From a virus (taxonomy: Duplodnaviria > Caudoviricetes): a stretch of 63,983 nt of DNA. This document shows positions 239 through 60,800 of this stretch, piece by piece. The notes under the pieces were generated by a model. The model did no database searches. It saw only the letters and a program-made list of their open reading frames with translations, and was not told where the DNA came from. Position 1 is the stretch's first letter. Each line of letters begins with the position of its first letter. Location: positions 1-63,983 of the IMG/VR virus record IMGVR_UViG_3300033076_000750. One strand, given 5' to 3'. The position numbers and the translations under genes are program-made.

Positions 239-3200
239 ACAGCGGCATCACCACCGGCAACGTCGATGCGCAGCGCAACGCCACAGCAGGCAAAGCAAAG
301 GCAGAGCCAATCGGCAACAGCGCCCGCGCACGAGCTATGGTCAACGAAGAGTTCGGAGCCATGGCGAAAGCCATGGGCATCGACATCATCCCGAACTACG
401 CTGGCCCATCCGCACACTACGTCATCAGCGAAGACGGCAAACGTCGTGGTGGTTACATCGAGATCAACCCGGTGAAGGTAGCTAACTGGTCACGAGGTCA
501 GATGATGGAAGCGATGCGTGAAGAGATGATCCACGCCATCGAAGATCGTGCGCTTGTCGCCGAGATGCAGAAGGCTGGCTACAAGCTGAGCGACCCCTAC
601 ATCCAGAGTGGCGACTACCATGTGGACTTCTTCAAAGGGGTCTATGACATGATGAGCCCAGAGCAGATCGCATACGTCAAGGACATCTACTCCAGCCACG
701 GCAACCGAGAGTATGTCATCGGCTCCGAGTTCCGCCGCATGTTGCTGCAAAAGGAGCACTACAACGGGCTCACGGAGTCGGCTATGGCAGGCGGCAAGAA
801 CAGCGCCAAAGCCAAGAAGGCAATCGCGGCAATCGCTGCTCTGCTCAAGACTGCGGTCAAGTATCTGCGGGCACTTGCCACCACCAACACCGAGGCTGGC
901 AAGCAAGCAGCACGCATCTACGAAGAGAGCCGCAAGATGCTTCAGAAGCTCGACCCTCGTGGTGATGCGAAGCCGCTGGCAATGGCTCGACCAAGCCCAG
1001 AAGGTGGAGTGATGGACATCATCAACGCAGACATTGAGAGGGATCACTGGAAGGCAACAGACCTCGACTCAGGCGAGGAGATCGTCTATCCAAAGACACA
1101 GACTCCACCACCACTGAAAGAGGGTAAGCGCTACAAGTTCACATCGGTAGTTGGCGATCAACTAGCGATGCAAGCTATGGCAGCACCCCAGCAACCCAAC
1201 GGCAAAGCCGCAGGATGGAACAACGGCATCCCGATCAAGCCCCAGGTGTCGAACCAGATGCCGGTCAAAGACGTGCGCAAGATGCCAGAGGCACCGAAGC
1301 AGCGCATGGCAGGTCCGAACTCGGACCCACTCGTTGGACTCCCATCGAAGGTAACGATCCCCGGCATCGGTGAGCGCACATTCGGACCATACCAGCCAGC
1401 CCGCGACACAGCCGTCGCCTACATGAAGCAGGCAGGCATGAGCTACGATCCGCCGCGCACCTATGCGAAGGTCAACAAGGATCGCGCAGCACGCATCGCC
1501 GCCGAGTTTGATGCGATGAAGCACGAACCGCAAGACCCGAAGGTGAAGGCCGCATACGCCGCACTGATCAAGGAGACGGTCGCTCAGTGGGAAGCCATCA
1601 AGAAGACCGGGCTCAAGGTCAGCCCAATGAAGCAAGGCATGACCGACCCATACGCAGCCAGCCCACGCCTCGCACAGATCGACGTTGAGGAGAATAACCA
1701 CCTCTGGTTCTTCCCAACAGACTTCGGCTTCGGCAACGATGTGACGGGCTTCGACCCCAAAGACAACCCGCTGTTCGAGTTCACGGGCGAGGTGATCGAC
1801 GGTCACAAGATGCGTGCCAACGACGTGTTCCGCATCGTCCATGACTACTTCGGTCACTTCAAGGAAGGCGTTGGCTTCCGCGCAGACGGCGAGGAGAACG
1901 CCTGGAGACAGCACGCCGCCATGTTCAGCCCCGAGTCCCGTGGCGCATTGACATCCGAGACACGCGGCCAGAACTCGTGGCTCAACTTCGGCCCACACGG
2001 CGAAAAGAACCGCACGGCCAAGGTTGAGGACACGGTGTTCGCCGACCAGAAGATCGGGCTCATGCCAGAGTGGACATGGCTAGAAGGAGCTGGAGACACG
2101 CAAGCAATGGCAGCGCCATCACGCGGCTACCTCGGCACGATCACCGAAGACAACGAGGTCATCGGAGTTAAGGTCAACGACCTCTCAAAAGCATACCACA
2201 GTGACTACCGGGAGATCACCAACGCCAGTGAAGGATTCCAGGGAGACTTCCGCTACAACGCCGACGACAAGATCGTCTATTGGTGGAACCCAGGCAGCTT
2301 GAACCCAGGTCACAAGCAGAAGGTCGCCGACTGGCTCGAAGCCAACGGTCAGGAAGTGAAGTCCCACAAGAACGTGAAGGGTAGCCAGGAGGCGTTCGCG
2401 AGAGCCCACGGGGTCCAGGCGATGGCTGCTCCAATGCCGAACCAAAAGGTCACAGCCTACCATGGTAGCCCCTACCAGTTCGACAAACCAAGGCGCTCAT
2501 CGACTGGCTTCTGGCTTACCACCGAAAAGAGTGTCGCCGAGCGCGGCTACGCAAGGGGTGGCGAGGTAAAGCAATACACGGTTGACACCACTGGTTTTGC
2601 TGACCTAACGAGAGACAAGGAACTCGCCAAGAAGCTGATCAAGGCATACAACACCGAGCCAGATGTGATCGAAGAAGATCGCAAGATTGGCGTGGACCCA
2701 GAATACGCAGCAACCATCTTCTCCGGCGCTGAGCCCGAGTCCATTCTCCGTGACATGGGATACTCTGGCGCAATCGTGTGGGAGGAGCCTGGAGTTGCCT
2801 CAATCAACGCCTTCGACCCAGACAAGTCGGTCCAGGCGATGGCTGCGCCACAGTCCGAACTCAATCTCGGCAAGAAAGCTGACGCAGACTTCTTGCGCCA
2901 GAAGAACGTGAAGCGCATCATCGACCAGACAGCACGCCGCCACCCGGAAGCGAAGCTGGTTAGCTATATCAAGGACGGTGACAAGTTCAGGCTCGATGAC
3001 AAGGGCTTGCCAGCAGCACACCCAGAGGAATACAACTTCGCAGAATCGACCCTCGCCAAGAGCGCGATGAAGGGTCTTCGAGGCGATGCTCGCCTCAAGG
3101 CATTCGAGCGTGCGCTCGCCGACAAGCTCAAGGGCTTCTACGACCAGATCAAAGGCCAACCCGAGGTTATGGCTGGCAAGGAGTGGTATCGCGTGGCTCG

Positions 3201-6200
3201 TGAGAAGCTGGTCAACGTGTTCGGTGACGACACGATGCTCTTCGCGCAGTTGCTCGCCGCGACCTCCGCACGCACGCCGGTCCAGCAGAACTTCGAGCAG
3301 GCTCTCGATGCCTACAACGGCATCTACGAAGGCCGCTTCAATGGCATGACCGAGCGCTACCTTGACGCCATGAAGTCCCTGGAGGCCGGAGAGCTGCGCT
3401 TCAGGAAGTCCATCGGCAACAACAAGATGGGCGATGTGGTGACGCCAAAGAGCTTCCGCGAGTGGCTGGACATCGAAGGCATCATGCCTCGCCGTGAGAA
3501 CGGAAAGAAGTTCAACGCCAACTCCATGCAGGTGCTCAACGTGATCGCTGGCGTATGGCGTGAGAAGCTGGGTGGACCGAAGACCGCGCAGTTCTCCGAC
3601 AACCTCTCAGGAGCCTCACTGGAGGCCACCGTTGACGTTTGGGCGGCTCGCACCCTGCACCGCATGTCCAACGAGCAGGAAGGGGCACGCTGGCGCATTC
3701 TGCCAGAGGCTGAGACGGGCGTGAACAACGAGGACTTCGCCATCGGGCAGGCTGCATTCAAGATCGCCGCCTCCGAACTCGGCATGAACCCAGACGACCT
3801 CCAGGGCGTGTTGTGGTTCGCTGAGAAGCGCCATTGGGCAAACAACGGCTGGACACGCGCTGCCGGTGCCGAACTCTCGGACTTCAGCAGCCTCCTCGAC
3901 TTCGTGACCACTGAGGGTGGAAAAAAGGTCTTGCGCATCGACAACGGACAAGGGATGCTGGCCTTCGATGACACCGACACCACAAGAACCACTGGACCTG
4001 AGACGCGAAGGATTCGTTCCCGTGCGACTGGAGCAACTCAATCTGTCCAAGGAGGAGCAGGAAGCTCTGCGCAAACAGCAGCAGGACGAGGACCAGAGCG
4101 AGTAGCGGCTGAAGAGCAGCGCTCGCTGTTCATGTCTGCGCCAAAGATCGAGAATCTAACCAAGACTTCGATCCAAGGGATGGATGCCGAGACTGGCAAG
4201 CCAATCACATTCAAGTTCCTTCACAACAAGTCGAGCTACACAAAGGAGCGCGGCAGACCATACAAGCCCTCGAAAGACGAGATGTTCGACCGTGGCTATG
4301 AGCCATCCGGGCAATACATGGTCGCCACAGAGGACGACTATCTCATCAGGTCGTATCCAAACGACTACATCACTGGCACCACTACATTCAACAACCCAAT
4401 CGTCATCAAAGCTGGGGAGTATGGCGAGGAGTCATCGTGGAAGCGCTCGCTGTCCAAAGCCTATGGGGGCAAGTCTGGGAAAGCTCTGTCCAAAGCCATC
4501 ATAGCATCAGGGCACGACGGCATCATCACGGTTCCGTTTGCTGGCAACCACGGAGAGATCGTTGACCTAACGACATTCGATGAATCGAAGGCTCTATTCA
4601 TGGCATCACCGCAGCAGGACGCGGCATACGCCGCAGCCATCAAGTCTGGAGACACTCAGGCGGCTCGCAAGATGCTTGACGAGGCAGCGGCACAAGCTGG
4701 CTACACGGTCAAAGCATTCCACGGGACGAACAAATCGTTCCGCAAGTTCAAGGCTCAATTCGGTCGCGCCCTCTGGTTCTCAGAGGATCGCAAGAAGATC
4801 GAGGACGGCGAGTCTGGAGCCCAGGGCACAAAGAAGATCATGGAGGTCTATCTGCGCCCAGGCCGCGTGGCTGGACGGAAGGAATACAACAACCTCATTG
4901 AGGGACAGTTGCTACGAGACTTCGACAGCACGAAGCTGGATGAAGACTGGATCGTGTATTCACCGAACGACGTGAAGAGCGCTGAACTCGTGACCAAGTC
5001 TGGCGGCGAGATGATCCCGCTCTCGGAGCGATTCAATGACGCGACCGGCGACATCAGGTTCATGGCAGGTCCGAACTCGGACCCGCAGCGCGCAAACTTC
5101 GTTGAGCCCGGCTTCTACTCCGAACTCCAGCGCACGATTGCCAACAAGATGCCGAACTCGATGAGGGTGATCCCAGCGACCACCATCAAAGGCAAGGCAA
5201 CCACCGAGCGCACGATCACCAACCCCAAGACAGGGCAGGTGATCAAGGTGATCAAGGCCAACAACGAGCCCGACAAGACCTACCCAGCCAAGAGCATCGG
5301 TGAGCAGGTGCGTGCCATGCTGCTGAACGCGGACGTGACCGAGGACGAGATCAAGTGGAGCGGCATCGTGCCTTGGCTCGATGGTCGCGAGAGCGTGACC
5401 AAAGACGAGGTGATCGACTACCTGCGCACTGAGGGTCAGGTGCGGTTCGCGGAGTCGGTGCTATCCGATGATAAGGGGTTCAAGACACAAATAAACGAAG
5501 ACGAGACAGCCTATGCTGGCCACGATGTCGTTGACGTGATTGATCCTCGCAACGGATTCGTGAGATTCTCTGGCACCCCATCCGAGGCGCGTAACTGGAT
5601 TGACGAAGAGAACGGCGCTACAGGCAGGACTCCAAAATACGCCACCTACCAACTCCCAGGCGGGACGAACTACCGTGAGGTCGTGCTGGCGATGCCAACG
5701 AAGGAAACGGTGTATCGCGTTTATCAGAATGGCAAAATTCTCATCGCGCTCAACAAAAAGAGTGACGCTGATGAATTCATCGCCAAGAGAGCATCTTGGG
5801 ATAATGAGCCCGTTGAGATTAAGGAGGAAACCATCGACTCATGGAAGGGTGATTACACCTCCAGCCACTTCACTGACGTTCCAAACTACGTCGCCCACAT
5901 GCGAACCAACGAGCGCACAGATGCCGCAGGCAAGAGCGGGATGTTCATCGAAGAGCTTCAGAGCGACAGGCATCAGGCTGGACGCAAGAAGGGGTATCTC
6001 GAAGACAAGACATTCACCGACCTGACTCCAGAAGAACAGGCTCGCATGGAATACCTAAACAACGAAGCTCCGACCCCTCTGCGAAATCATCAACTCGCTG
6101 AACTTGAGAGGCTTCGTAGTCGCGCAAGACAGGCAAGAAACCCATCATTGCGCGAAGGCATTCCAGACGCACCATTCCGCCAATCATCAGCATGGGGTCT

Positions 6201-9200
6201 GCACCTCTTCAAGCGTGCGCTCCGCGATGCCGTGGAAAGCGGAAAGGAGTGGATCGGTTGGACAGTCGGCGACACACAGAACGACCGCTTCTCGCTGGAG
6301 AAGCAGATCGACACGCTCGGCTACCACAAGTGGACGCACCCAGAGAAGGGTGTGGTTTATAACCTGATGGCGGGCAAGAATAACAAAGAAGTATTCAAGA
6401 AGCAATCACTCACCGAGAGCGAGCTTGAAGACCATGTGGGCACCGAGATGAAGGACAAGATCGTGGCAGGAGAAAAGACCACCACCCAGAAGCAAAGCCA
6501 GATCGCTGCCGACCCTATCGAATGGTCTGTCATCTCGGGGCTCGACCTCAAGACAGGTGGCAGTGGTATGCGCGGCTTCTACGACAGGATCATGCCACGC
6601 GAGATCGGCGACTACGTCAAGCAGTGGGGAGGCAAGGTCGAGAAGAGCAACTTGATTGAGGGGAATAAATTCGACTTCGAGATGACCCCATTCGGAGTTG
6701 GCGACACCTTCGTCCTCAAAGACAAGATCACCGGCAAGTTCCTGGCAGACAGAGCCCAAGAAACATTCGCATCCAGGCAGGCTGACGGCGAGATCATGTC
6801 GAGGTCCGTCGCCAAGTCAGTGATTGAGGCATACGCGAAACAAGTCACCACTTCGATGTGGCGCATCAACATCACGCCACAGATGCGCCAGTCCATCGCC
6901 AATGAGGGACAAGCCCTGTTCATGGCTGGACCTCGCTCAGAGTCACCACAGGCAGCTGGAGAGGCGCTCGAAGCATGGCTGGCACTCCCAGCTACTGCCG
7001 CAGAGCTTCAGATGCTCCGTGAGCAGGCGTTAAGCGAAGAAACCGGCAAGCGCACGGTCGGCGATCCAGCACGAGCTGGACTGCTTGGATCGGGCGACAA
7101 GGAGAACCGTGAGCGTGACGCCATCATCCAGTTCCGCAAGAACCACAAGGCACCGGAGAAGGTTGTGGACTGGATGCGCGATGGGCAGGAACTCGCGGAC
7201 AGCGATCCAGAGATGGTCGCCGATGCGCTGATCGACAACTTCTACAACGGTGTGGGATACGACACGCCGGAGCAGGTGTTCGCCTCCGCCATCGTCGTCA
7301 GCCGCATGTTCAAGGAAGCCCGCCAGAAGGGCGATCCTGCGCTTCTGCGCAAGGCTCAGGCACTTGCATACGCGGACGGTGCTGCCCGCACGGAAAACGC
7401 ACGCATCCTGCGCAGTATGGTCGATCCTCACCGCTCGCCAGAGGAGCGGATGCACGAGTTCTTCAGCAAGCTCATCAGCACCCCATCCGAGTTCCAGCGC
7501 ATCGAGATCGAGAAGGCACCATCGCCACTTGCTAAAGAGCGTGAGATCGCGGAGCTGAAGGCGCAGATCGAGAAGCTGAAGGAGCAGGTCGGAACTCAGA
7601 CCCAAGGTCCGGTTGTCGAGCAAAAGAAGAAGCTCGAAAAGACCCTGGATCAGGCTCAGCAGCGCAAAGATCGCAAGACGTTGGTCGATGAATACACGGA
7701 GGCCCGCCGCAAGGCCGTCGCCGCCGCTCTGAAGAAGGAAGGCTTGAGCGAGGAAGACATCTTCGTGAGTGGCGAGGAACGCCTCGCCGCCCACAACTCA
7801 GACCCTGTTCAGGAGGCCATCGCCCAGCACCCGAAAGAGCACCGTGAGGCCATCAACTACATCATGCGTGGCTACTCGCACAAGGACATCGCACAGATGA
7901 CCAAGCTGCCAGTCAACGTGGTGGCAACCATCCATCAGGAGTTCCGTCAGAAGTCGATGCGCTCATCACTCGCCAAATGGGTGAAGAAGGGCAACACGCT
8001 GTTCGACACCATCCAGAACGGACTGAAGAAGGTCTTCGGCATGTCTATGGCAGCACCAGTCCCACTCGCCCAGGCACGCGCACAGATCATCGCAGAAGCT
8101 GAGATCGAGCGTCAGCTCAACGTGCTTGTGCCAACCGCACAGCAGGTCAACAGCGGCAAGATGGTGGCGGTGATCGTCAATAAGAAGTCCGGCCAAGAGG
8201 TCACGATCAAAGTTCCGTTCAGCGCATCCGACTTCCGTGCGTCCTACCGAGTTGGCCGCGCCATCAGCACCAGCGAAAGCAATGCCTTCGACAAGATTTA
8301 CGAGTATTGGATTTCGTTCGGCCTGCTCAGCGGTCCTGAAACGCATTGGGCGAACGTCGCTGGCAATGCCGGTATGCTCATGCTCCACCTCTTCGCGCAG
8401 AAGCCGATGGAGGCAGCGCTCAACTTTGCGTTCCGTGACCCCAACAGCACGACGTTCCGTGAGTTCGGAGAGATGATCAAGGGAGTGATCCCTGGCGTGC
8501 GTGATGCGTTCGCTCTCGCTGCTCTGGCGTGGGATGCAGAAGCCGACCCAATCGGAGCCCGCTACATGGATGAAACCATCGACCTCTCATTCGACTCCAC
8601 CGGCAACCTGTCGAAGGTCGGCACGATGAAGGGTCCGGCTATCCAAGGCACCAAGGGTCGCGTGTTCCGCGTGAGCACTCGCTTCCTGCTGGCGATGGAT
8701 GCGTTTTTTAAAGCGATCACTGCAAACATCGAGGTCGGAGCCCGCGCCTACCGCCTCGGCAAGATGTCCCAGGCCAAGGGCACGCTCGGCACAGCCAAGG
8801 GCGACCTCGAAGCGTTCATCGCTCAGCAGGTGGCAACCCCAGGATCAGAGTCATGGGAGCTTGCAATCCAGACATCTAAAGAACTCGCGTTCCAGGGTGA
8901 CAACTGGCTGACTATGATCGCCGGTAGCCTCACGGCCCGCAACCAGGAGATGGCTGTCGCCAACCTATCGAAGGATGTGGTGAAGGCATCTGCCAAGGGC
9001 AACTCAAGCGAGGTGTTCAACGCCAAGCTCTCGCGCTCAGCAATGATGTTCACAGGATTCGTGATGAAGTTCATCTTCCCATTCGTCAAGACCCCAACCA
9101 ACATCATCCGCATCGGCGCACGCAAAGCAGGACTCGGAACCATCGGCCTCCTGGCACTTGCCCCGTATGTCATGGCAAAGGGCGTTCACAACATCGCCAA

Positions 9201-10263
9201 AGGCCGAAACTTCCACGACGGCAATCAATCGGCGCTCATGATCACATGGCTCGCTGAACAGATTCAAGCCGCCGCCATGTGGATGTATGTGTGGAGCATC
9301 GCAGAGGGTGATGACGACGACAATGAGAAACCGTTCTACATTGTTGGTTCGCGCCCATACGGCACATCGAAGCCCGGTGAGCGCGAGGCTGCATACACCA
9401 AGAGCGGAGGCACCCAGGTTGTTATGGTCCGCAACAGCGACGGCACCTACACTCCATGGGCATACGGACGTTACGAGCCATTCGCCACCGTCCTCACCTC
9501 GGTCGTTGACACGATCCGCGAGATCAAGAATGCCAAGCGTCTTAACGAACTCGGAGTGCCTGGAGGCAGCATCGAGAACGTGATGACAAACTCCATTGCA
9601 TCCTTTGCCTCACAGCTCCAGGACAAGTCCTTCTTCCAGGGCTTCGCCAACGTCACCAAAGCCATCGAGAAGGTGATGAACAAAAAGAGTGGAGAGCTTG
9701 CGACTGACACCGTGAAGGGTTTCCTCCAGGGATTCGTTCCAAACATTGTTCGCCAGCCGATCCGTAACGACGATCCAAAGGTGCGCGACTCCAAGAAGGC
9801 TGATGCTCTCTATCTCGCGCTTCCCATGGGACGCTTTGCGGAGCCACTGATCGACTACTATGGTCGTGAGAGCGAGAAGCTCGGCACCAGCGTCAGTCGC
9901 CTGCTCATCCGCTCGGCTAACAAGCCACAGGACAGCACTAAGGCCGAAGAGATGATCGACCGTTGGAATCTCCTGCACCCAGACAAGAAGTTCCAGCCAT
10001 CGCGCATCTCGAAGTCTGATATGTGGATTTACGGGCCGAACAAGGAACGCCGCATCATCACCGACAACAAGCTGAAGACTGAATTCGAGCGTGAGCTTGG
10101 GCATGAAATCCTGCGCCGTCACAACGAACTCGCGGCCAGCATCGAAGGATTCCCAGACGACTTTGATGACCGTCTGCGCTCTGAGGCGACAAAGGCTCGC
10201 GAGCAGGTGCGCAAGGACTTTCTCAACAAGTCGTTTGAAAGACAGCAAAAGCTATTAAAGTGA
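1..10263 (+). CDS. Giant polyvalent/ejection protein, C-terminal part (continues from 57857 across the junction). Contains zincin-like, ART-PolyVal, HhH-like, EELQSD-type and C-terminal LPD38-like regions
   Basis: Frame open from base 1 to TGA 10263. Motifs: EEMIH; HDYFGH...ETRGQNSW; YHGS..GFWLT; FHGT..LWFS..IVYSPNDVKS; WY..LAATS..TVDVW..QGVLW; IEELQSD; FPFVKTPTNI. Confidence 0.85.
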   Translation, partial: SLAASSTQKGYEYLRALIERKYNAHTSEELFIHAGVSAKIIAAIKKVVEFLRDLQSALKEGGDFNLVKDIADKAEMAFLDSGITTGNVDAQRNATAGKAKAEPIGNSARARAMVNEEFGAMAKAMGIDIIPNYAGPSAHYVISEDGKRRGGYIEINPVKVANWSRGQMMEAMREEMIHAIEDRALVAEMQKAGYKLSDPYIQSGDYHVDFFKGVYDMMSPEQIAYVKDIYSSHGNREYVIGSEFRRMLLQKEHYNGLTESAMAGGKNSAKAKKAIAAIAALLKTAVKYLRALATTNTEAGKQAARIYEESRKMLQKLDPRGDAKPLAMARPSPEGGVMDIINADIERDHWKATDLDSGEEIVYPKTQTPPPLKEGKRYKFTSVVGDQLAMQAMAAPQQPNGKAAGWNNGIPIKPQVSNQMPVKDVRKMPEAPKQRMAGPNSDPLVGLPSKVTIPGIGERTFGPYQPARDTAVAYMKQAGMSYDPPRTYAKVNKDRAARIAAEFDAMKHEPQDPKVKAAYAALIKETVAQWEAIKKTGLKVSPMKQGMTDPYAASPRLAQIDVEENNHLWFFPTDFGFGNDVTGFDPKDNPLFEFTGEVIDGHKMRANDVFRIVHDYFGHFKEGVGFRADGEENAWRQHAAMFSPESRGALTSETRGQNSWLNFGPHGEKNRTAKVEDTVFADQKIGLMPEWTWLEGAGDTQAMAAPSRGYLGTITEDNEVIGVKVNDLSKAYHSDYREITNASEGFQGDFRYNADDKIVYWWNPGSLNPGHKQKVADWLEANGQEVKSHKNVKGSQEAFARAHGVQAMAAPMPNQKVTAYHGSPYQFDKPRRSSTGFWLTTEKSVAERGYARGGEVKQYTVDTTGFADLTRDKELAKKLIKAYNTEPDVIEEDRKIGVDPEYAATIFSGAEPESILRDMGYSGAIVWEEPGVASINAFDPDKSVQAMAAPQSELNLGKKADADFLRQKNVKRIIDQTARRHPEAKLVSYIKDGDKFRLDDKGLPAAHPEEYNFAESTLAKSAMKGLRGDARLKAFERALADKLKGFYDQIKGQPEVMAGKEWYRVAREKLVNVFGDDTMLFAQLLAATSARTPVQQNFEQALDAYNGIYEGRFNGMTERYLDAMKSLEAGELRFRKSIGNNKMGDVVTPKSFREWLDIEGIMPRRENGKKFNANSMQVLNVIAGVWREKLGGPKTAQFSDNLSGASLEATVDVWAARTLHRMSNEQEGARWRILPEAETGVNNEDFAIGQAAFKIAASELGMNPDDLQGVLWFAEKRHWANNGWTRAAGAELSDFSSLLDFVTTEGGKKVLRIDNGQGMLAFDDTDTTRTTGPETRRIRSRATGATQSVQGGAGSSAQTAAGRGPERVAAEEQRSLFMSAPKIENLTKTSIQGMDAETGKPITFKFLHNKSSYTKERGRPYKPSKDEMFDRGYEPSGQYMVATEDDYLIRSYPNDYITGTTTFNNPIVIKAGEYGEESSWKRSLSKAYGGKSGKALSKAIIASGHDGIITVPFAGNHGEIVDLTTFDESKALFMASPQQDAAYAAAIKSGDTQAARKMLDEAAAQAGYTVKAFHGTNKSFRKFKAQFGRALWFSEDRKKIEDGESGAQGTKKIMEVYLRPGRVAGRKEYNNLIEGQLLRDFDSTKLDEDWIVYSPNDVKSAELVTKSGGEMIPLSERFNDATGDIRFMAGPNSDPQRANFVEPGFYSELQRTIANKMPNSMRVIPATTIKGKATTERTITNPKTGQVIKVIKANNEPDKTYPAKSIGEQVRAMLLNADVTEDEIKWSGIVPWLDGRESVTKDEVIDYLRTEGQVRFAESVLSDDKGFKTQINEDETAYAGHDVVDVIDPRNGFVRFSGTPSEARNWIDEENGATGRTPKYATYQLPGGTNYREVVLAMPTKETVYRVYQNGKILIALNKKSDADEFIAKRASWDNEPVEIKEETIDSWKGDYTSSHFTDVPNYVAHMRTNERTDAAGKSGMFIEELQSDRHQAGRKKGYLEDKTFTDLTPEEQARMEYLNNEAPTPLRNHQLAELERLRSRARQARNPSLREGIPDAPFRQSSAWGLHLFKRALRDAVESGKEWIGWTVGDTQNDRFSLEKQIDTLGYHKWTHPEKGVVYNLMAGKNNKEVFKKQSLTESELEDHVGTEMKDKIVAGEKTTTQKQSQIAADPIEWSVISGLDLKTGGSGMRGFYDRIMPREIGDYVKQWGGKVEKSNLIEGNKFDFEMTPFGVGDTFVLKDKITGKFLADRAQETFASRQADGEIMSRSVAKSVIEAYAKQVTTSMWRINITPQMRQSIANEGQALFMAGPRSESPQAAGEALEAWLALPATAAELQMLREQALSEETGKRTVGDPARAGLLGSGDKENRERDAIIQFRKNHKAPEKVVDWMRDGQELADSDPEMVADALIDNFYNGVGYDTPEQVFASAIVVSRMFKEARQKGDPALLRKAQALAYADGAARTENARILRSMVDPHRSPEERMHEFFSKLISTPSEFQRIEIEKAPSPLAKEREIAELKAQIEKLKEQVGTQTQGPVVEQKKKLEKTLDQAQQRKDRKTLVDEYTEARRKAVAAALKKEGLSEEDIFVSGEERLAAHNSDPVQEAIAQHPKEHREAINYIMRGYSHKDIAQMTKLPVNVVATIHQEFRQKSMRSSLAKWVKKGNTLFDTIQNGLKKVFGMSMAAPVPLAQARAQIIAEAEIERQLNVLVPTAQQVNSGKMVAVIVNKKSGQEVTIKVPFSASDFRASYRVGRAISTSESNAFDKIYEYWISFGLLSGPETHWANVAGNAGMLMLHLFAQKPMEAALNFAFRDPNSTTFREFGEMIKGVIPGVRDAFALAALAWDAEADPIGARYMDETIDLSFDSTGNLSKVGTMKGPAIQGTKGRVFRVSTRFLLAMDAFFKAITANIEVGARAYRLGKMSQAKGTLGTAKGDLEAFIAQQVATPGSESWELAIQTSKELAFQGDNWLTMIAGSLTARNQEMAVANLSKDVVKASAKGNSSEVFNAKLSRSAMMFTGFVMKFIFPFVKTPTNIIRIGARKAGLGTIGLLALAPYVMAKGVHNIAKGRNFHDGNQSALMITWLAEQIQAAAMWMYVWSIAEGDDDDNEKPFYIVGSRPYGTSKPGEREAAYTKSGGTQVVMVRNSDGTYTPWAYGRYEPFATVLTSVVDTIREIKNAKRLNELGVPGGSIENVMTNSIASFASQLQDKSFFQGFANVTKAIEKVMNKKSGELATDTVKGFLQGFVPNIVRQPIRNDDPKVRDSKKADALYLALPMGRFAEPLIDYYGRESEKLGTSVSRLLIRSANKPQDSTKAEEMIDRWNLLHPDKKFQPSRISKSDMWIYGPNKERRIITDNKLKTEFERELGHEILRRHNELAASIEGFPDDFDDRLRSEATKAREQVRKDFLNKSFERQQKLLK
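1312..1327. promoter_or_regulatory. 16-bp palindromic operator/parS-like site (intragenic)
   Basis: GGTCCGAACTCGGACC. Confidence 0.75.
3968..4105 (+). CDS. Possible overprinted small ORF (+1 frame inside the giant gene)
   Basis: MTPTPQEPLDLRREGFVPVRLEQLNLSKEEQEALRKQQQDEDQSE; the main frame is low-complexity here. Confidence 0.35.
   Translation: MTPTPQEPLDLRREGFVPVRLEQLNLSKEEQEALRKQQQDEDQSE
5068..5083. promoter_or_regulatory. 16-bp palindromic operator/parS-like site (intragenic)
   Basis: GGTCCGAACTCGGACC. Confidence 0.75.
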
Positions 10264-11331: not shown

Positions 11332-13425
11332 ATGAAAGCACTCGCCATCACATCCCTCACGCTCACCGATGAGCAAGAACAAGAACTCTACAATGTCTGC
11401 GAGGAGGGGGCGAATGCTGCACGCAAGGGGCAGGGGCAGGAGGCTGAATGGGACTGCACCAAGCAGCCGAAGCAATACTCGTGGCTCTGGTGGAGATGGA
11501 TCAGCGAACTCGCGTTCGAGGGCGACTTCTCTTGGCGCGTAGGGCTCACGCCTCGTGGCGCTATCACGACTGGAGTTGAGGGGCTGAAGGTGTTCAACAA
11601 CAGCAACCTGAGCATGAACACGCCCGCAGACCACCACGCACAGCTCCGCGTGAAGATCAGCCGGTCGCTGCTCAAGGATCACCGCTTCTTTGGTGCCAAG
11701 CCAGAGGGCAATGAGGACCAGCACGCCGCCAAATCCATCGAGCAGATTCAGCGCCGGTTGAGGCACCGCTCAAAGAAGTCCGGCTTCCGTGATCAGATGG
11801 AGACTTCAATCAACCGAGCCCTGCTATCTGGAGAACAAGTGCTGCTCCCAGCATACTCTCAGCGCATCGTCTATCGGCCAACCCTCGCCCGCATCGTTCT
11901 CGACCAGAATGGTCGCCCGCTTCAAAGCGCGGCGACCAAAACCATCGTCACCGAACTCGATCCGTGGGATGATGTTGAAGCAGGCCGCAGTCAGCTTCGC
12001 AAAGACCCAACCATCACCAGAGCAACCAGCTCAGAGCTTCGCTACAGCAACAAGCCGATGAAGCTCATGCAGGCAGAGGTGATCAACGATGGCGCACGCT
12101 TTGACCGCATCCATCCACAGGACTTCATCTGTGATCCAAGGTGGGCAACCATTGACGAAGCTGACTACAAGGGCAACGAATTCTCGATGCCACTGGACGA
12201 CATCAAAGCGATGCTCGAAGCCAGGGGCCAGCTCATCCCCGAGGCGTGGGAAGAATACCGTGAGAAGGTCAAGACCGGCTCGAAGAAGCTGGCACGCAAA
12301 GATCAGGCCAAGGAGAGTGTTGGCGAGGTGGACGAGGACTCCATTGACGCATCGTCAGGCGCAGGTTCCAGATCAAGCTCTGACACCATGCAGCCACGCA
12401 TCCTTCTGCGTCAGCAGTTCGTCAAGGCAGACACCTTGGGTCTTGGACACCGGCAAGACTTGTGGGTGATCACCGACAACGAGACTGGCATTCCCCTGAT
12501 CTACGACTTCGCATCCGAGATCGTGGAGGTGGACCCAGATCGCGGGCACCCATATCGTTGCATCCGTGGAGCCGAGGTCATCGACCGCTGGTATGGTCGC
12601 CCGATCTACCAAACGATGTGGGATGACCTCATCGCCATCGACAGTCGCCTGAACCAAATCCAGCTTGAATGCGATGCAGCAGGCAACATCGTGTTCGTCA
12701 ACGGCAAGTTCATCGTTGGTTGGAACAAGGACAAGAAGCTCGAAATCCGCAGCCGCGTTCCAAACGAGGTGACATCTGGCGCTGACCCTCGTGAGGCGAT
12801 CCATGTCGAGACAATCGAGCCGCAGATCGCTGAGATCGAGAAGTCGCTCGACCTCGCTCTCCAGCGCGCCCAGGCCAAGAATGGACTCAGTGGCGCAGGC
12901 CAGACCGTCAGCAAGGCTTTGCCTGGGACAGAGACGGCTACCGGCCAGACGATCCTGGAGGACGCTCAGAATGCGGTCCTTGAGAGCTTGATCAAGGAAC
13001 TGGCAAAGGGCATCGACACCTGCATCAGTGACTTCACAAAGATCGAACTCGACAATATCGACGATGCCGACCTCCTGAAGCAGATGGGTCAAGACAACGC
13101 GAAGCTGGTTCTGGATTGGGTCGCAGCCAACGAGGAGTCATACGACAGCGCCATCGAGATTCTGATCGCCGCCATCGTTGACACCACGACCCTTGACAAG
13201 AATTCCCAGGCAATGGCAGTCGGCAAGGAGTGGATGGCTTGGCCTCCAGCCTACCAGCCGTCATGGAAGCCGCTCTTCGAGAAGATGCTGATGAGCCTGG
13301 ACATCGACAACCCATCACAGTTCCTGCAAACCATCAATGAACTCATCGCCGCCCAATCCACCCAACCAGCAGCGCCAATCGCTCCCCCCGTTGACGCTGC
13401 CAGACTGGAACCCATCGGAGCGTAA
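11332..13425 (+). CDS. Portal protein (podovirus/P22-like)
   Basis: 697 aa; WYGRP..DLIAIDSRLNQ and ETATG motifs; first gene of the structural block. Confidence 0.7.
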   Translation: MKALAITSLTLTDEQEQELYNVCEEGANAARKGQGQEAEWDCTKQPKQYSWLWWRWISELAFEGDFSWRVGLTPRGAITTGVEGLKVFNNSNLSMNTPADHHAQLRVKISRSLLKDHRFFGAKPEGNEDQHAAKSIEQIQRRLRHRSKKSGFRDQMETSINRALLSGEQVLLPAYSQRIVYRPTLARIVLDQNGRPLQSAATKTIVTELDPWDDVEAGRSQLRKDPTITRATSSELRYSNKPMKLMQAEVINDGARFDRIHPQDFICDPRWATIDEADYKGNEFSMPLDDIKAMLEARGQLIPEAWEEYREKVKTGSKKLARKDQAKESVGEVDEDSIDASSGAGSRSSSDTMQPRILLRQQFVKADTLGLGHRQDLWVITDNETGIPLIYDFASEIVEVDPDRGHPYRCIRGAEVIDRWYGRPIYQTMWDDLIAIDSRLNQIQLECDAAGNIVFVNGKFIVGWNKDKKLEIRSRVPNEVTSGADPREAIHVETIEPQIAEIEKSLDLALQRAQAKNGLSGAGQTVSKALPGTETATGQTILEDAQNAVLESLIKELAKGIDTCISDFTKIELDNIDDADLLKQMGQDNAKLVLDWVAANEESYDSAIEILIAAIVDTTTLDKNSQAMAVGKEWMAWPPAYQPSWKPLFEKMLMSLDIDNPSQFLQTINELIAAQSTQPAAPIAPPVDAARLEPIGA

Positions 13426-13666
13426 CTACGCCGCCGCATCCGCACAAATGCTGCGCGATGATCCGCATGTTCGGAACCTGATCACGGGTCCGAACTCGGA
13501 CCTGTTTGGCGACAACAAGTCGGTAATTGGAAACATGAGACGGCAGCTTCTGCGCGAGCAGATGGACCCAGGAAGCAAATACGACAAGCAGCAGATCGCC
13601 ATCTCACTAAAAACACTCGAAGTATTGCTTGATAAACTGAAGGATGTTGCAGATTTTATCCAATGA
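13337..13666 (+). CDS. Hypothetical protein after portal
   Basis: ORF coupled to the next gene; start uncertain, overlaps the portal 3' end. Confidence 0.6.
   Translation: MNSSPPNPPNQQRQSLPPLTLPDWNPSERNYAAASAQMLRDDPHVRNLITGPNSDLFGDNKSVIGNMRRQLLREQMDPGSKYDKQQIAISLKTLEVLLDKLKDVADFIQ
13487..13502. promoter_or_regulatory. 16-bp palindromic operator/parS-like site
   Basis: GGTCCGAACTCGGACC. Confidence 0.75.
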
Positions 13667-16210: not shown

Positions 16211-16226
16211 GGTCCGAACTCGGACC
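16211..16226. promoter_or_regulatory. 16-bp palindromic operator site upstream of the endolysin
   Basis: GAGCA-GGTCCGAACTCGGACC-TGCTC extended palindrome. Confidence 0.75.
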
Positions 16227-17434: not shown

Positions 17435-17625
17435 GTGACGAAGACCAACGTCGCGCATTCAACGCCAGCCAAAAGCCTTGCCCAAAAAGCGGAAAGTGCC
17501 CACGCCTCCAATGGATGAACTTGCATGTCATCGCCTGCGGCCCAGACTGTGAATGCACGATCCACGACGGCAGCAACGTCTCACCCCAACCAATAATAAA
17601 CGCATGGAACCAACTACACCCGTGA
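17431..17625 (+). CDS. Small Cys-rich protein (Lar-like)
   Basis: KPCP..C...C..C...IINAWN. Confidence 0.5.
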   Translation: MSDEDQRRAFNASQKPCPKSGKCPRLQWMNLHVIACGPDCECTIHDGSNVSPQPIINAWNQLHP

Positions 17626-20026: not shown

Positions 20027-20034
20027 CTTTACCC

Positions 20035-34298: not shown

Positions 34299-34299
34299 T

Positions 34300-36115: not shown

Positions 36116-36131
36116 CCAACACCAAATACCA

Positions 36132-40264: not shown

Positions 40265-40376
40265 CCGGCAGCGAGCTTTCAAGCGCTGCTGGTTGAATTG
40301 AGCGACGGGCAGCAAAAGCAAAAGCAGCGGCATCCAGTCCGTATGACTTGCCAAGCACCGTCGTTCAATTCAGCCA
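40265..40376 (+). ncRNA. Candidate structured RNA (intergenic)
   Basis: 19-bp stem 40290-40308/40358-40376 with two G-U pairs, plus inner and upstream hairpins. Confidence 0.4.
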
Positions 40377-40390
40377 TTACCAATAACCAA

Positions 40391-42311: not shown

Positions 42312-42365
42312 ACGTTGACAAAAATCCACATCAAGTCCACATAAACACGCCACACCAACACGCCC

Positions 42366-43361: not shown

Positions 43362-43759
43362 CTCCCGAAGACCTAGCACAACGTATGGATAATAACGAGG
43401 TATTGAGTGAGCCGGTAACAGAGCTGCTCTCCAAAGAAGAGATTATCACAATCATTAAGGAGGCAGCAAAAATTGCCAAAAAGTCCATTGAGATAACCAG
43501 TCGCATTGGAGAATGGAAAACTGACTATGAGCGATCAACCTCTGTGCGCGAATTCATCAGCTACAAGTTCACTGACAACCAAAATGAAGTGAAGTGGATT
43601 GAGCCGCCACCGGCATCAAGGCGTGCTCAGCATAACCCATTCGCCACCCTGTTTAGCCTCCAGACGAAGACCTCCGAATTCGTTAAATCATTCTTGCAGG
43701 TCCGAACTCCGACCTGTAAGAAGCGCGCCTCCGCCCACTTCGATCTGACCGATGTCTGA
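43358..43759 (+). CDS. Hypothetical protein between terS and terL
   Basis: ATGA-coupled. Confidence 0.55.
   Translation: MTPEDLAQRMDNNEVLSEPVTELLSKEEIITIIKEAAKIAKKSIEITSRIGEWKTDYERSTSVREFISYKFTDNQNEVKWIEPPPASRRAQHNPFATLFSLQTKTSEFVKSFLQVRTPTCKKRASAHFDLTDV
43699..43714. promoter_or_regulatory. 16-bp operator site upstream of terL
   Basis: CA-GGTCCGAACTCCGACC-TG. Confidence 0.7.
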
Positions 43760-47545: not shown

Positions 47546-47844
47546 TGCCGTCTGCATTCAAAGCTCTGAAGCCGAATCCGCACAAGCCTGGGTCGCTCGA
47601 TCACGAGTTGCTTGAGACGAAGCGCGACATTAAGCGAGCTAAACGCGGCGAGCCGGGGGAAGCGTCACTTGAAGAGATGCGCCAAACCAAAAAGCGTATC
47701 AAGCGTGAGATTAAGGAGGCGGACGACCAGGAGCGTGCTGCCGAAAAAGTGGAGCGCGACACCTACCTCCGCATGAGGGCGAAGGACACGGAGCCACGGC
47801 AACTGGCACCGATCCACATCAAGCCCAAGCACCGCTTCTTGTAG
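47545..47844 (+). CDS. Hypothetical protein, N-terminus MPSAFKALK
   Basis: TGATG-coupled; shared motif. Confidence 0.65.
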   Translation: MPSAFKALKPNPHKPGSLDHELLETKRDIKRAKRGEPGEASLEEMRQTKKRIKREIKEADDQERAAEKVERDTYLRMRAKDTEPRQLAPIHIKPKHRFL

Positions 47845-47859
47845 GTCCGAGTTCGGACC
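47844..47859. promoter_or_regulatory. 16-bp operator upstream of a promoter (TTGCGT-16-CATACT)
   Basis: GGTCCGAGTTCGGACC; downstream CACGCCACCCGGCGCACCAAA leader shared with the 28151 promoter. Confidence 0.75.
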
Positions 47860-47954
47860 TGTGAAGAAAGTGATAAAAAAAATTTGCGTTCAGTCTGGAG
47901 CGCCCCATACTCCAATCACGCCACCCGGCGCACCAAACTCAACTACCAAATACC

Positions 47955-49830: not shown

Positions 49831-50030
49831 CATCAAGCCCATCAGCATCATGGCCGCAGGCTCTCGAAGCAGAGCAAGCTCGGCTCAAAGCATTGAAGAG
49901 AAATGCCAAGTTCATGTCCCCAGAGTGGAGGCATCTAAACCAGCAAGTTGCAACTATTGCCAGAGCCACAGAAACGGCATGGCGAGAGTATTATGGCGAA
50001 GTTCACAGAAAGATGACAAATAATCGTTGA
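49827..50030 (+). CDS. Hypothetical protein
   Basis: ATGA-coupled. Confidence 0.5.
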   Translation: MTSSPSASWPQALEAEQARLKALKRNAKFMSPEWRHLNQQVATIARATETAWREYYGEVHRKMTNNR

Positions 50031-50054
50031 CAGGTCCGAGTTCCGACCTACTTG
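50027..50054 (+). promoter_or_regulatory. Promoter with the operator as spacer
   Basis: TGACAAATAATCG-TTGACA-GGTCCGAGTTCCGACC-TACTTG. Confidence 0.75.
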
Positions 50055-50094
50055 TCCATCACGCCAGACAACCCTGAGCGCACCAAACACCAAT

Positions 50095-53968: not shown

Positions 53969-53996
53969 TTGACAGGTCCGAGTTCCGACCTATTCA
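53969..53996 (+). promoter_or_regulatory. Promoter with the operator as spacer
   Basis: TGATAAATAATCT-TTGACA-GGTCCGAGTTCCGACC-TATTCA. Confidence 0.75.
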
Positions 53997-54031
53997 TAGC
54001 GCCACGGGAAACCGCACCAAACACCAACGCC

Positions 54032-55349: not shown

Positions 55350-55377
55350 TTGACAGGTCCGAGTTCGGACCTACTCT
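55350..55377 (+). promoter_or_regulatory. Promoter with the operator as spacer
   Basis: TGATAAATAATCCG-TTGACA-GGTCCGAGTTCGGACC-TACTCT. Confidence 0.8.
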
Positions 55378-55402
55378 CCATCACGCCACAAGCGCACCAA
55401 AT

Positions 55403-57821: not shown

Positions 57822-57856
57822 ATTGAACATCGCCAATAGGTCCAATATGTTTGCGA

Positions 57857-60800
57857 ATGGCATCACCATTCGCATACCTATACGCAGCCGGAACCGACGC
57901 ACGCACACCAAACACTCAGCGCAAACTGAGTCCCGTTGGAGAGGCGCTTTTAAAACAAACAGGTCCGAGTTCCGACCCACGAGTCCAGAAGGCTGAGCAG
58001 GACGATCAGGAGGTGCTCACGCCAAAGCGTCAGACGCACTTCAAATTGCCTGACGGCACGCTGAAGCCACTAACCGCCCCAAGCGGCGAGCGCTACCTGC
58101 TCAAAAACAGCGGATGGCGTCACCCACGCGACCCAAAGACCAACGAGCCGGTTTTGGTCAACGAGCAGGGCGAGGCCCGCTCGATCTACGACGACGCTCC
58201 ACGCATCAAGAAGGATGGCAAGATTTACGCAGCCCCCGCAGGCTACGAGAAGAAGGAGCTTGGTCCTGACCCAGACTTCAATCCGAACGCCATGACCAAG
58301 GAGCAGGAGAAGGCCAACCTCGCAAAGCAGAAGGAAGACGAGAAGACTGCCAAGGAGCAGGACGCATACGCCAAAGCCGTGCTCGAACGTGACGTGTCCC
58401 AGATCATCACTGACAGCGAGGTCAAGAGCCTGGAGACGGCAGCGGCTGAGAAGAAGGCCAAGCTCGCCGAAGCCGAGATCAGCGACAAACGCATGTTCGC
58501 CAAAGAAGCGCTAACCAAGGCCGAGCGTGATGCAGAAGATCGTAAGATTGGTTCGGCTGAAGAACTCGCCATCGCGCAGGAGCAATACAACGCCGCCCGC
58601 AAGTCTGAGGAGCAGGCCAAAGCCGCAACCCGCGCCATCGAAGCTCGCCAGATCGAAGAGGACTTGGCAAACGCCAAGCAGAAGGAAACACTCAATCAAT
58701 TCGAGAGCGCTCTGAAGCTGGAGAACACTGGTCGCCGCCAGTCTCTCTCCATGCCCACACCGACGAAGGCCAAGGAGCCAACGGCCAGCGAGACAGCGCC
58801 AGTCACCACACCAATCAGCGCCCTCCCAACAGGCAAGGGGCTGGACAAAGCTATCGCAGCCAGCAAAGCCCCAGACATCAGGATCGAGCCACCCATCGCC
58901 CCGACGTTCCTGACCGGCGCTCCACGCACCGACATCCCACCAGTCCCAGAGATCGCAGGAGGACCGCTGCCATGGCAGAAGCAGGCGAGCCGCACACTGA
59001 TCATCGAAGCCGACCCGAACTTCGGTGATGAGCCCATCGAGCCAGGAACCGACCTCACACAGGAAGTGGAGTTCGATGCCGCTGGCAAAGGATCGTTCAC
59101 CGGCAGCAAGCCACGCAAAGCCGCAGGCAAGAAGATGGGCGAAGGCATGACCGACGACGTGCCCCCAGAGTGGACATCAAGCAACGCACTCACTGCCCAG
59201 GCAACTGCCCGCGACACTGGCACCGATGTCATCCACACCGACAGCACTCTCAGCGTAGAGCTGCCAGCAAGCCGCCTCGACGCAGAAGGTGCGTTGAAGG
59301 TAGATGGCAAGCAGGTGGGGATTGTGAGGCGCACGATGCTCGGCCTGCCTGAGATCGAGCTGGCACCAGCAACCTACGGGCAGACAGCCAGCCCAAGCTA
59401 CCGCAGCAGCGACCCATTCAAGGGAGCGCCTGAATATGCCGCGCCATCTGCCACCTTCCGCGAGCAGCAGGCCAAGGCAGGCAATCCATTCGCCGCCGAG
59501 AAGCCATGGCGTGAACAGCGCTGGGGTGACAAGCAGGTGGCAGAGTTCATCGAGAACTGGAAAGGCTTTGGCGATGCTGAACGCCGCAAGCTCATGGACA
59601 GCGACTTGCTCAAAGAGATGGAGGGCGAGATGCCAGACGCACGCTTCCTGTTCACCAACGGCTACGTCAGCCTGCAACAGGCACGCCAGATCGACCAAGC
59701 GGTCTATGGTCGCAGCCAGAAGCTTCCTGACTTCACCACGAGCTTCGACGCATGGAAGGGTGGCGAGTCACCGGCAGCAGCCAAACTGCGTGAGATGGAG
59801 GCGGGTGGAATCACTGACGCCAGCAACCGTGAGCTTGTGCTAGCCCGTCAGCGCGTCCTGACCGAGTGGGAGGGCGAATACCGCAAACGCCACGGCACCC
59901 AGCCTGATTTCGACCCCAATGCGCTCGTATCGGCCAGCAAGACCATCGGTGGCACCATGAGCACTGGCTGGCAGACGTTCGTGTCTGACGCCGAAGACCT
60001 CGGCAGCAGTGTGGGTGGGTCCGTCTCAGGATTGGCCCAATGGTTTGGCAAGCAGGGCATTAAGATGGCAACCGGCACCCTTGGTCGGTCACTCGCCACA
60101 ATGAGCGCTCCAACCATCCCCCAGGAGCAGCAGCAGGCTATCCGCGACAAGCAGGCCCAGGGCTCCCCCCTCTCCAACGAGGAGAAGGCGCTGCTCTTCC
60201 GCATGAACTACACTGACGGCAAGAACGTGTCAGACGAAGCGCTCGCGATGATCGAGTTCCCCAAGGAGGCCGAGCTTGCATTCAAGAAGCTGCAATCCGA
60301 CATCAAAGCACTCGGCAGCAAGTGGAAGGAGAACGACGAAGACCCGCGCAACGTGATGGTCATCGCCCCAGGGCTCGCAGTTGAAGCAGGCATCAAATCA
60401 TTCGACACCCAGGCCCAGAAGGACGCAGCGGTCAAAGCCTACCTGGACAAGCGCAACAAGGGCGAAGGCAACGTGCTGGCTGACATCGACCTGCTCAAGG
60501 AGCACATCAACAACGACACGCTCACGCCTGACGTGCTCAAGACCCTCTCAGATCGCATCAAAGCGAAGGGCATGAAGAACGTGGGCATGATCGACAAGAG
60601 CAACGACGATCAAATCACGCAGAAGGGGCAGATGGAAGCTGACAAAGCCAACCGCTATGACCTCATGCAGCACTCGAATGCAGCAGCGCTCCTCGCTGGC
60701 TACAAGGAGACGCGGGACGAGAGCTACATAGACATGCTCAAAGACCTCATGTATTCGACCGCAGAGCGCGAGGAGCTGATCATGGAAGCTGGTCGCCACG

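Follow-up and report, generated by a model that had tools for sequence, protein, structure and literature searches.

A 16-bp palindrome recurs at 17 places in the window, by which we mean the whole 63,983-bp stretch of phage DNA analysed here, an IMG/VR virus record filed as linear. On sequence comparison the palindrome is a real conserved element under selection at the DNA level, and it is very probably a protein-binding site. The balance tips slightly towards the ParB-family protein encoded at 39137-40135 as its binder. We infer that identity from the co-occurrence of gene and palindrome in three of three genomes, from the geometry of the sites and from the failure to recognise any other candidate. 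Spreading gated by a nucleoside triphosphate (NTP), and the sign of regulation, are likewise inferred. The best overall explanation would be a ParB-family operator network in a phage, similar to that of KorB on plasmid RK2, which we judge to be about evenly poised between right and wrong.

The palindrome was sought with the query GGTCCGANNTCSGACC, allowing up to one mismatch, with 100 dinucleotide-preserving shuffles as background. The window gave 32 strand-matches against a shuffle mean of 0.12 (largest 2). An earlier note on this DNA had reported 15 copies, and all of these were recovered at the positions it gave, 14 exact on the + strand and the copy at 20327 with one mismatch. Two further one-mismatch sites, at 7587 and 61591, fit a looser consensus, GGTCNGANNTCNGACC (GGTC-N-GA-NN-TC-N-GACC), and bring the total to 17. 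Two relatives were available for comparison: G001, a complete genome (an IMG/VR record of 62,356 bp with ends that overlap by exactly 127 bp, which we take to be a common assembly k-mer size), and L037, 21 kb of a 62.7-kb metagenome contig. The looser pattern was found 16 times in the window, 12 times in G001 and not once in the reversed-sequence control of either, and a de novo scan of window, G001 and L037 for recurrent palindromes returned only the GGTC-N-GA-NN-TC-N-GACC family. Eight of the 17 window sites are perfect palindromes, six have C for G at position 12, and 14 are preceded by CA, which extends the left half-site. At position 5 the window favours C (24 of 34 half-sites) and G001 favours G (15 of 24); the centre dinucleotide, always AC or GT in the window, takes six different forms in G001.

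The sites had been described as lying around a whole circle, a description that agrees with the ends of the record. The last 236 nt of the window (63746-63981) match positions 1-236 with nine mismatches, and a giant open reading frame (ORF) runs across the ends (57851-63983 joined to 1-10263, about 5,385 codons), the last 79 residues at the 3' end being 98.7% identical to the first 79 at the 5' end. Hence, the genome is circular or circularly permuted, at about 63.7 kb. The nine mismatches in the overlap suggest that the record was assembled across strain variation. Evenness of spacing was expressed as the coefficient of variation (CV) of the gaps on the circle, with uniformly random placement as the null. 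The window sites are more evenly spaced than random, whether the 15 original copies are used (CV 0.43, P=6e-4) or all 17 (CV 0.33, P=5e-6), as are the 12 sites of G001 (P=0.04). Inclusion of four extra two-mismatch sites in G001 gave P=1.5e-5, a value that we set aside because the sites were picked post hoc and, at three mismatches, a control pattern matches equally often.

The relatives preserve both the sites and their surroundings. G001 proteins are 34-68% identical to those of the window and their genes are in the same order; the ParB-like protein is 50% identical in G001 and 80% in L037. The 12 G001 sites have the same consensus, flanked by G...C where the window has A...T. Syntenic sites in G001 and the window are those at the start of the giant ORF (codon 44 versus 38), 5' of the large terminase gene TerL (31 versus 53 nt), at the early promoters, just past a homologous 998/980-residue gene and past homologous early genes. 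Each of the five L037 sites is at a place homologous to a window site. When these five site pairs were aligned with ungapped flanks of 40 nt per side, the core was identical at 60 of 60 positions (12 per site) versus 314 of 400 in the flanks, position 12 differed in all five pairs and the centre differed in two. Given the even spacing, the conservation in relatives and this footprint, the palindrome is more than a chance recurrence and is under selection.

Eight of the 15 original copies are within ORFs, and the earlier argument that selection acts on DNA rather than peptide held, since these copies are read in three different frames and the core is kept where the peptide changes. Two perfect copies with centre AC, at 1312-1327 and 5068-5083, are in the giant ORF and are both read AGPNSDP. 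A third perfect AC copy (13487-13502) begins 62 nt past the stop codon of the portal gene, in ORF 13337-13666; the one-mismatch copy GGTCCGAACCCGGACC (20327-20342) is in ORF 19987-21213, and a perfect copy with centre GT (23901-23916) is in ORF 23681-24355. The remaining three have C at position 12. One (34766-34781) is inside the lambda-O-like initiator gene, 55 nt 3' of its iterons, and is kept in L037; one (43699-43714), with 37 nt from the end of the site to the TerL start, is syntenic in both relatives; and one (57962-57977) is at codon 38 of the giant ORF, the G001 copy at codon 44 encoding a different peptide (GPSSDP in one genome, GRTSDP in the other) from a conserved DNA core. This N-terminal site is the only giant-ORF copy to have kept its position between window and G001; the others have moved with density maintained. 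The two degenerate copies added in the present analysis, GGTCGGAACTCAGACC at 7587-7602 and GGTCGGAATTCAGACC at 61591-61606, are also in the giant ORF. Two copies are intergenic, both perfect: that at 16211-16226 (centre AC), which together with its flanks forms a 26-bp perfect palindrome, and that at 47844-47859 (centre GT), which is 24 bp 5' of a promoter-like TTGCGT (47884) and is kept in L037.

The identity between the first two giant-ORF copies extends beyond the palindrome. At 1303-1329 and 5059-5085 the common stretch is CATGGCA, the palindrome and C, reading MAGPNSDP; a G001 copy reads MAGPMSDP. The stretch may be a preferred way of fitting the site into a linker, or the peptide itself may act as a signal, for instance for processing of the giant polyvalent protein.

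Five copies occupy the spacer of promoter-like sequences, all on the + strand. TTGACA abuts the 5' side of the site and a -10-like hexamer abuts the 3' side: TATGAT at 28151-28178 (palindrome 28157-28172), CACAAT at 39062-39089 (39068-39083), TACTTG at 50027-50054 (50033-50048), TATTCA at 53969-53996 (53975-53990) and TACTCT at 55350-55377 (55356-55371). The first is at the head of the replication module, at a place syntenic with a G001 site; the second is directly 5' of the ParB-like gene, the site ending 53 nt before the ATG at 39137, and is kept in L037. The last three resemble early promoters, of which 50027 is syntenic in G001 and L037 and the other two in G001. Thus, the exact-spacer arrangement and the promoter copy upstream of the ParB-like gene are both as the earlier note had them, with the refinement that a stricter consensus scan calls only 28151 (11 of 12 positions) and 39062 (10 of 12). 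That 50027, 53969 and 55350 are promoters is suggested by their perfect -35 hexamers, their intergenic position before gene starts and their conservation in relatives. In G001 three of the 12 sites are in early-promoter spacers (TTGACG-site-C-CATACT).

The five promoter sites have two more features in common, namely an AT-rich element immediately 5' (GATGAYAAATAAT) and, ahead of the start codon, the leader CACGCCA...GCACCAAA. In a sixth member of this promoter family (about 47884) the palindrome lies 24 bp 5' of the -35, so that the 17 sites are five in promoter spacers, one at 24 bp 5' of a promoter and 11 elsewhere. The leader, in the form CACGCCA...GCACCAAA(C/T), was seen at 28179-28205, 47917-47940, 50060-50090, 54000-54025 and 55382-55402, ending a few bases 5' of the start codon. 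It has no Shine-Dalgarno-like purine run and could be a translation or RNA-level signal; its G001 counterpart is CACGCCAG...GGACCAAATACCAA(C/T)ATG.

The candidate binder is an orphan ParB-family protein of 332 residues (39137-40135, + strand), recognised by profile, fold, motif and predicted dimer. Its domains are a ParB/Srx N-domain (about residues 12-101), helix-turn-helix (HTH) helices at 154-166 and 170-180, a long helix and a C-terminal dimer domain (291-330). It has 14 close homologues among 5.8 billion proteins, and the weaker matches include precomputed ParB_N proteins and ParB_N-methyltransferase fusions. A profile of 15 homologues matched the pNOB8 ParB N-domain (E=1.1e-4), and Hhalign against P0026 (a protein with a precomputed PF02195 match, named Spo0J-like by its source) gave 99.3% probability (E=4.3e-20, 150 columns). 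The top Foldseek matches of the AlphaFold model (pLDDT 78) were pNOB8 ParB-N (probability 1.00), Spo0J, Caulobacter ParB, Noc and KorB. By VIA-align, residues 12-101 superimposed on Myxococcus xanthus ParB with CTPγS or CDP at Z 8.7-8.8 (root-mean-square deviation 3.2 Å, 84 aligned), and rows 1-14 of the ranking were all of the ParB family, the next row having Z 4.4. pNOB8 ParB-N aligned over residues 12-215 (Z 8.6), the two Noc structures 7ng0 and 7nfu gave Z 8.0 and 6.6, and the complex of the KorB DNA-binding domain with its operator (1r71) gave only Z 3.8. The earlier prediction of a ParB fold with an HTH was thus borne out by profile comparison and AlphaFold.

Invariant residues are found in both domains. 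The HTH residues S155, H156, R159, S169, D171, K174 and K175 are conserved in 15 of 15 homologues. Box I-like (L35..S38..G42..P48-I-V) and Box III-like (E97-N-L-x-R-R-x-L104) segments are visible in the N-domain. Between them G59-R60-N61-R62, also invariant in 15 of 15, corresponds to GxxR, the Box II P-motif of ParB folds (PMC12704722). A homodimer was predicted through residues 291-330 with an ipSAE of 0.49 against 0.00 for the best control, a mark attained by 20 of the 30 homodimers of known structure and by one of 23 single chains; the runs agreed in at least 97% of contacts with partner pLDDT of at least 78, and the prediction may partly reflect likeness to solved ParB dimers. By these models, the protein is a distant ParB-family member of canonical layout, with an NTPase-fold N-domain, an HTH and a dimerisation domain.

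No other DNA-binding family stood out among the 50 ORF translations scanned with Pfam, the 19 scanned with PHROGs and the 10 scanned with NCBIfam, and these scans found no DNA-binding family in the small conserved ORFs. The O-like initiator (34210-35103, + strand), the other recognisable site-specific binder, gave weak PHROG rows for HTH DNA-binding and transcriptional repressor proteins; we rejected it as the reader of the palindrome, since window and G001 alike have initiator iterons of a different sequence. Those of the window, four to five units of about 16 nt within the initiator gene (34615-34711, + strand), mark the probable origin and differ in sequence from the palindrome; the four 22-nt iterons at the same place in G001 are unrelated to them and to the palindrome. 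Within 34615-34760 each iteron contains GGTCA...TGACC, two copies of AAGGAAATCC follow, and the palindrome is 55 nt downstream. The other HTH-type matches were weak PHROG rows (HTH, DNA-binding) for the HNH endonuclease at 35100-35606 and a sub-threshold HTH_60 match in 23681-24355 (E 0.038).

These elements suggest the following mechanism. The ParB-family gene, in the middle region, would be expressed from a weak promoter of its own (at least for the window and L037), and the dimeric product would bind the dyad. At five sigma-70-type promoters (the early promoters 50027, 53969 and 55350, the replication-module promoter 28151 and its own, 39062) the dimer would fill the -35/-10 spacer, and from these spacers and the site 24 bp 5' of the promoter at about 47884 it would exclude RNA polymerase. 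Early, middle and replication-module transcription would be switched off and synthesis of the protein itself limited. The other 11 or so copies, about one every 3.7 kb, run through the giant ORF and the structural genes and include one next to the origin and one 5' of the terminase gene. They could be nucleation or loading sites; by spreading, sliding or bridging from them, in the manner of ParB, KorB and Noc, the protein would bring the whole genome within reach of a site. Nucleotide-dependent spreading we consider possible but rather doubtful.

The interpretation put forward in the earlier note therefore survives in its core of a conserved DNA element, promoter spacers and a ParB-fold protein, but not in partition, CI replacement or general autoregulation. 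Its KorB-like layout is what we find, namely dispersed palindromic operators, some at promoters and some distal. Its ParB/Srx protein with HTH is upheld by profile, fold, GxxR motif, HTH and predicted dimer, but not by a Pfam ParB_N match. As for general autoregulation, an operator-promoter is directly 5' of the gene in the window and L037 but not in G001. The idea of genome partition is left without support because ParA (AAA_31, PF13614) was absent from a six-frame search of window and G001 (the control was positive in 14 of 14 genomes; PF01656 was not searched) and the ParA-binding motif (L/F/I)G(K/R)G(L/F/I), or LG(R/K)GL, as given for ParB in PMC12704722, does not occur in the 332-residue sequence. 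The suggestion that the protein stands in for a CI repressor is likewise unsupported, because a six-frame search of the two genomes found no tyrosine integrase and no other lysogeny gene was found.

Several observations weigh against the KorB-like explanation. The ParB-like gene and the palindrome co-occur in only three of three genomes, one of them partial, and no relative lacking either was found, so that the association is neither broken nor confirmed. At three of the five promoters the -10 hexamers are weak and uncalled by the consensus scan, promoter-like counts in both scanned regions are no higher than in shuffles, and the same promoter family (TTGACA, about 17-19 nt, CATAAA, then CACGCCA) occurs at about 42315-42352 with no palindrome. 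The ParB-like protein matched no Pfam family at E<=0.01, ParB_N included, and no ParB model of NCBIfam; a six-frame PF02195 search of window and G001 gave no match at E<=1 (the control matched 11 of 14 genomes). The nucleotide specificity of ParB folds is described as unpredictable from sequence or AlphaFold3 in PMC12704722. The gene belongs to a conserved four-gene block, described below, that would also suit a role in replication or recombination, and in G001 the nearest site is about 440 nt upstream of the gene, inside the preceding gene. Finally, the family scans covered about two-thirds of the candidate ORFs and most of the proteome has no family match, which would leave room for a hidden small repressor. 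The palindrome-free promoter at about 42315 may be constitutive or differently timed.

The palindrome/ParB-like pairing was seen in one lineage, comprising the window, G001 and L037. Neither a DNA search of a phage collection with 7.5 kb around the ParB-like gene nor a single-protein search of viral contigs found a relative, and a search of genome contigs for the protein found none. An alignment-based search with the protein found G001 and eight distant loci (22-33% identity). G001 was the sole result of an alignment search with TerL and of a pattern search for promoter plus palindrome, which suggests that IMG/VR contains a single relative. Among sequencing runs, one of DNA and none of RNA was listed as carrying the phage sequence. 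At 13 loci with distant ParB-like genes (1-20 kb of each examined) there was neither the palindrome motif nor any recurrent palindrome.

Among the rival explanations, the one that survives best is that the palindrome is the operator of some other regulator, which might be a transcription factor of the host or an unrecognised small repressor of the phage. Some different task would then fall to the ParB-like protein, for example in replication or recombination together with the adjacent nuclease and SF2 helicase, or in anti-defence, as for its relatives fused to methyltransferases. The unmatched proteome could hide a protein of the Cro or Arc type, and the closest relatives of the N-terminal 200 residues are methyltransferase fusions rather than repressors. 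The setting of the gene in the conserved block of SWIM-like, nuclease-like and SF2 helicase genes, and the lack of an operator-promoter directly 5' of it in G001, also fit another regulator. Against this, if the initiator with its own iterons is set aside, no conserved protein but the ParB-like one combines a recognisable HTH with a predicted dimer, and evenly spaced genic sites are typical of the ParB family and unusual for ordinary repressors. The exact palindrome was found elsewhere only as single copies, in nine viral stretches and at least 120 genome stretches among the matches listed, and these matches gave no host clue and no host regulon. We consider another regulator doubtful, if a serious contender.

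The KorB-like explanation can also be carried further than the mechanism given above. An orphan nucleotide-gated clamp might load at about 17 even sites, one every 3.7 kb, and coat or compact the genome as a virus-encoded chromatin with two jobs. It would silence early and middle promoters from the spacers, and organise or shield replicating DNA (from host nucleases, or for replication or packaging), with selection acting on site density rather than exact position. We regard this extension as unlikely.

A less probable alternative is that the sites are entry points for replication or recombination, or signals for packaging, condensation or nicking, with or without the ParB-like protein, and that control of transcription is secondary. 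The even spacing of about 3.7 kb would suit such a function, as would the placement of one site 55 nt from the origin iterons and another just before the terminase gene. In the giant ORF the density of sites is conserved but their positions are not, and the ParB-like gene is within the replication module near helicases and a nuclease-like protein. The promoter copies point the other way: five sites fill promoter spacers exactly, an arrangement conserved in three genomes, and this points to transcription. Moreover, nicking at a palindromic site would give double nicks and would not be strand-specific, and 17 packaging starts would leave no defined genome end. Nor did a nuclease motif come to light in the ParB-like protein, for which no search aimed at one was made. 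We hold such functions to be improbable as the primary role.

Still less likely is a role as an RNA or single-stranded DNA hairpin, which might serve in termination, processing, stabilisation or priming, or as a promoter of the N4 hairpin type. A stem could be read from the eight perfect palindromes, from the extension of the 16211 site to 26 bp in an intergenic gap and the similar extension of the G001 copy past the 998-residue gene, and from the presence of a giant virion-type protein in a phage, as in N4. A stem should keep positions 5 and 12 paired, but these are complementary at only 9 of 17 window sites and 6 of 12 G001 sites, as expected if the half-sites are independent (9.5 and 5.6, respectively). 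Between window and L037, position 12 flips in five of five pairs and position 5 does not compensate. On the coding strand the sites are not followed by a T-run, the giant ORF gave no match to an RNA polymerase domain, and the five copies in promoter spacers are upstream of the transcription starts and would therefore be absent from the RNA. Since the half-sites vary independently, with no pairing constraint, the element is by its sequence a double-stranded DNA site for a dimer rather than a hairpin. A crossover site for a serine recombinase, which would have a 2-bp centre, was also considered and rejected: the centre varies freely in G001, gene order is conserved, and the sole invertase-like match is a weak HTH one in the HNH endonuclease, an enzyme with no match in G001.

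Repetition of a peptide or of a small mobile element is extremely improbable, for although three of the five window copies and two of the three G001 copies in the giant ORF read (A/T/S)G(P/R)xSDP in one frame, two of the window copies sharing MAGPNSDP, the copies as a whole occupy three frames, intergenic DNA and promoter spacers, the one positionally conserved genic site keeps its DNA core with a changed peptide, and the flanks are unrelated, with no target duplications and no longer repeat units.

The remaining gene content places the sites in a phage of largely unannotated proteins. All long ORFs of the window are on the + strand. A quarter of the genome is the giant ORF, the product of which is a polyvalent protein with matches to InPase, ART-PolyVal and DUF7178; the G001 homologue has 5,601 codons. 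Recognisable genes, all on the + strand, encode an SU10-type portal (11332-13425), an SbcC-like ATPase and a UvrD helicase (30261-33198), an HNH endonuclease (35100-35606; phrog_1872, E=8e-33), DnaB (36054-37556), an SF2 helicase (40298-42019) and TerL (43752-46040). The HNH endonuclease has a C-terminal HTH and no counterpart in G001, and is probably a homing endonuclease inserted in the replication module. Just 5' of the ParB-like gene (38318-39048) are a 100-residue protein with a CxC...CxH pattern, SWIM-like by eye, and a 168-residue protein with a D...ExK pattern, PD-(D/E)xK by eye, with a weak endonuclease PHROG match (E=0.0045). These two genes, the ParB-like gene and the SF2 helicase gene form the four-gene block conserved in G001.

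Among the structural genes, 17553-18272 and 19382-20026 encode the N-terminal domain of a dATP/dGTP diphosphohydrolase (PF18909, E=8e-23) and a domain resembling MptE (E=1e-8), and the coding strand has a strong excess of A over T (AT skew about +0.2); taken together these may mean that the phage modifies DNA or manipulates nucleotide pools. In cultured phages, which are only remotely related, TerL is about 30% identical, and the cultured-phage matches to the ParB-like protein are three weak ones, to Leptospira LE1 ParB (two records) and Corynebacterium phi16. The only PHROGs match of the ParB-like protein is to a PHROG of unknown function.

To our knowledge, how ParB-family clamps silence at long range is understood from a single plasmid, RK2 with its KorB. 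Related activities belong to VirB, BisD and Noc. If the KorB-like explanation is true, this silencing logic extends to viruses, and the phage offers a compact model, about 64 kb with 17 sites, of how site spacing relates to clamp spreading. It would also give a concrete early-to-late switch to a lineage with an almost wholly unannotated proteome. A survey of ParB folds used PF02195 in its domain-centric search (PMC12704722); the present family is invisible to PF02195, and surveys seeded with it would therefore miss such proteins, so that more such systems may exist. In a limited search of the open-access literature, no non-temperate phage was described as having a dispersed set of ParB-type operators.

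Known systems resemble parts of this arrangement. The nearest relatives of residues 12-210, in sequence and structure, are phage ParB_N modules fused to DNA methyltransferases. Such fusions are called typical of phages, and the canonical ParB layout is placed almost only on plasmids and chromosomes, in the 2025 survey (PMC12704722). Unlike the fusions, the window protein has no methyltransferase domain and has instead a long helix and a C-terminal dimerisation domain.

Cluster A mycobacteriophages are temperate and carry an integrase or ParABS. Their stoperators are many genome-wide sites, asymmetric in sequence, at which a monomeric repressor effects genome-wide silencing (PMC9283540). Like the stoperators of L5 and Bxb1, the palindromes would be read by one phage protein at many genome-wide sites, at early promoters and within and between genes. 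The palindrome differs in being a dyad with equivalent, independently varying half-sites and a predicted dimer as its putative reader, whereas stoperators are asymmetric, are oriented with transcription and have a monomeric two-domain repressor. Moreover, neither an integrase nor ParA was found in the window or G001, and the protein families are unrelated.

In phage N15 four inverted-repeat (IR) sites are scattered over the genome and affect phage gene expression. Its SopB is a phage-encoded ParB-family protein that reads several such sites and acts with SopA in plasmid partition (PMC7205306). The likeness is in a ParB-family protein encoded by a phage whose genome has several inverted-repeat sites; the difference is that N15 has four sites (IR1-4) and SopA (a ParA), whereas the window has 15-17 sites, no ParA found and no sign of a plasmid-prophage lifestyle.

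Noc loads at many dispersed palindromic sites and spreads, tethering DNA to the membrane and blocking division. It too is an orphan, a ParB paralogue with no ParA (PMC12704722). The phage protein shares with Bacillus Noc its orphan state and the fold, and would share the many dispersed palindromic sites; it differs in its phage context and in the placement of sites inside promoters.

The OB operators of plasmid RK2 are numerous and scattered over a replicon of about 60 kb. KorB is a ParB-family CTP clamp that binds these 16-bp operators at sites both proximal and distal to promoters (PMC11790492). The distance from OB to the promoter downstream is 4-10 bp at some sites and 45 to more than 1,000 bp at others, whereas the phage site fills the -35/-10 spacer. 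The phage differs further in that it is not a plasmid, has no lysogeny genes found, and has a protein undetected by PF02195 and sites of conspicuously even spacing. No counterpart of the ParA protein IncC was found, and a clamp lock of the KorA/TrbA type was not recognisable: there was no second recurrent palindrome and no recognisable small HTH protein, most small ORFs having no family match. KorB with OB is the nearest functioning parallel. Both replicons, each of about 60 kb, have a ParB-family protein with an HTH and a dispersed 16-bp palindrome with copies at promoters and far from them, and in the phage, as proposed here for its replication and early-type genes, the outcome would again be repression.

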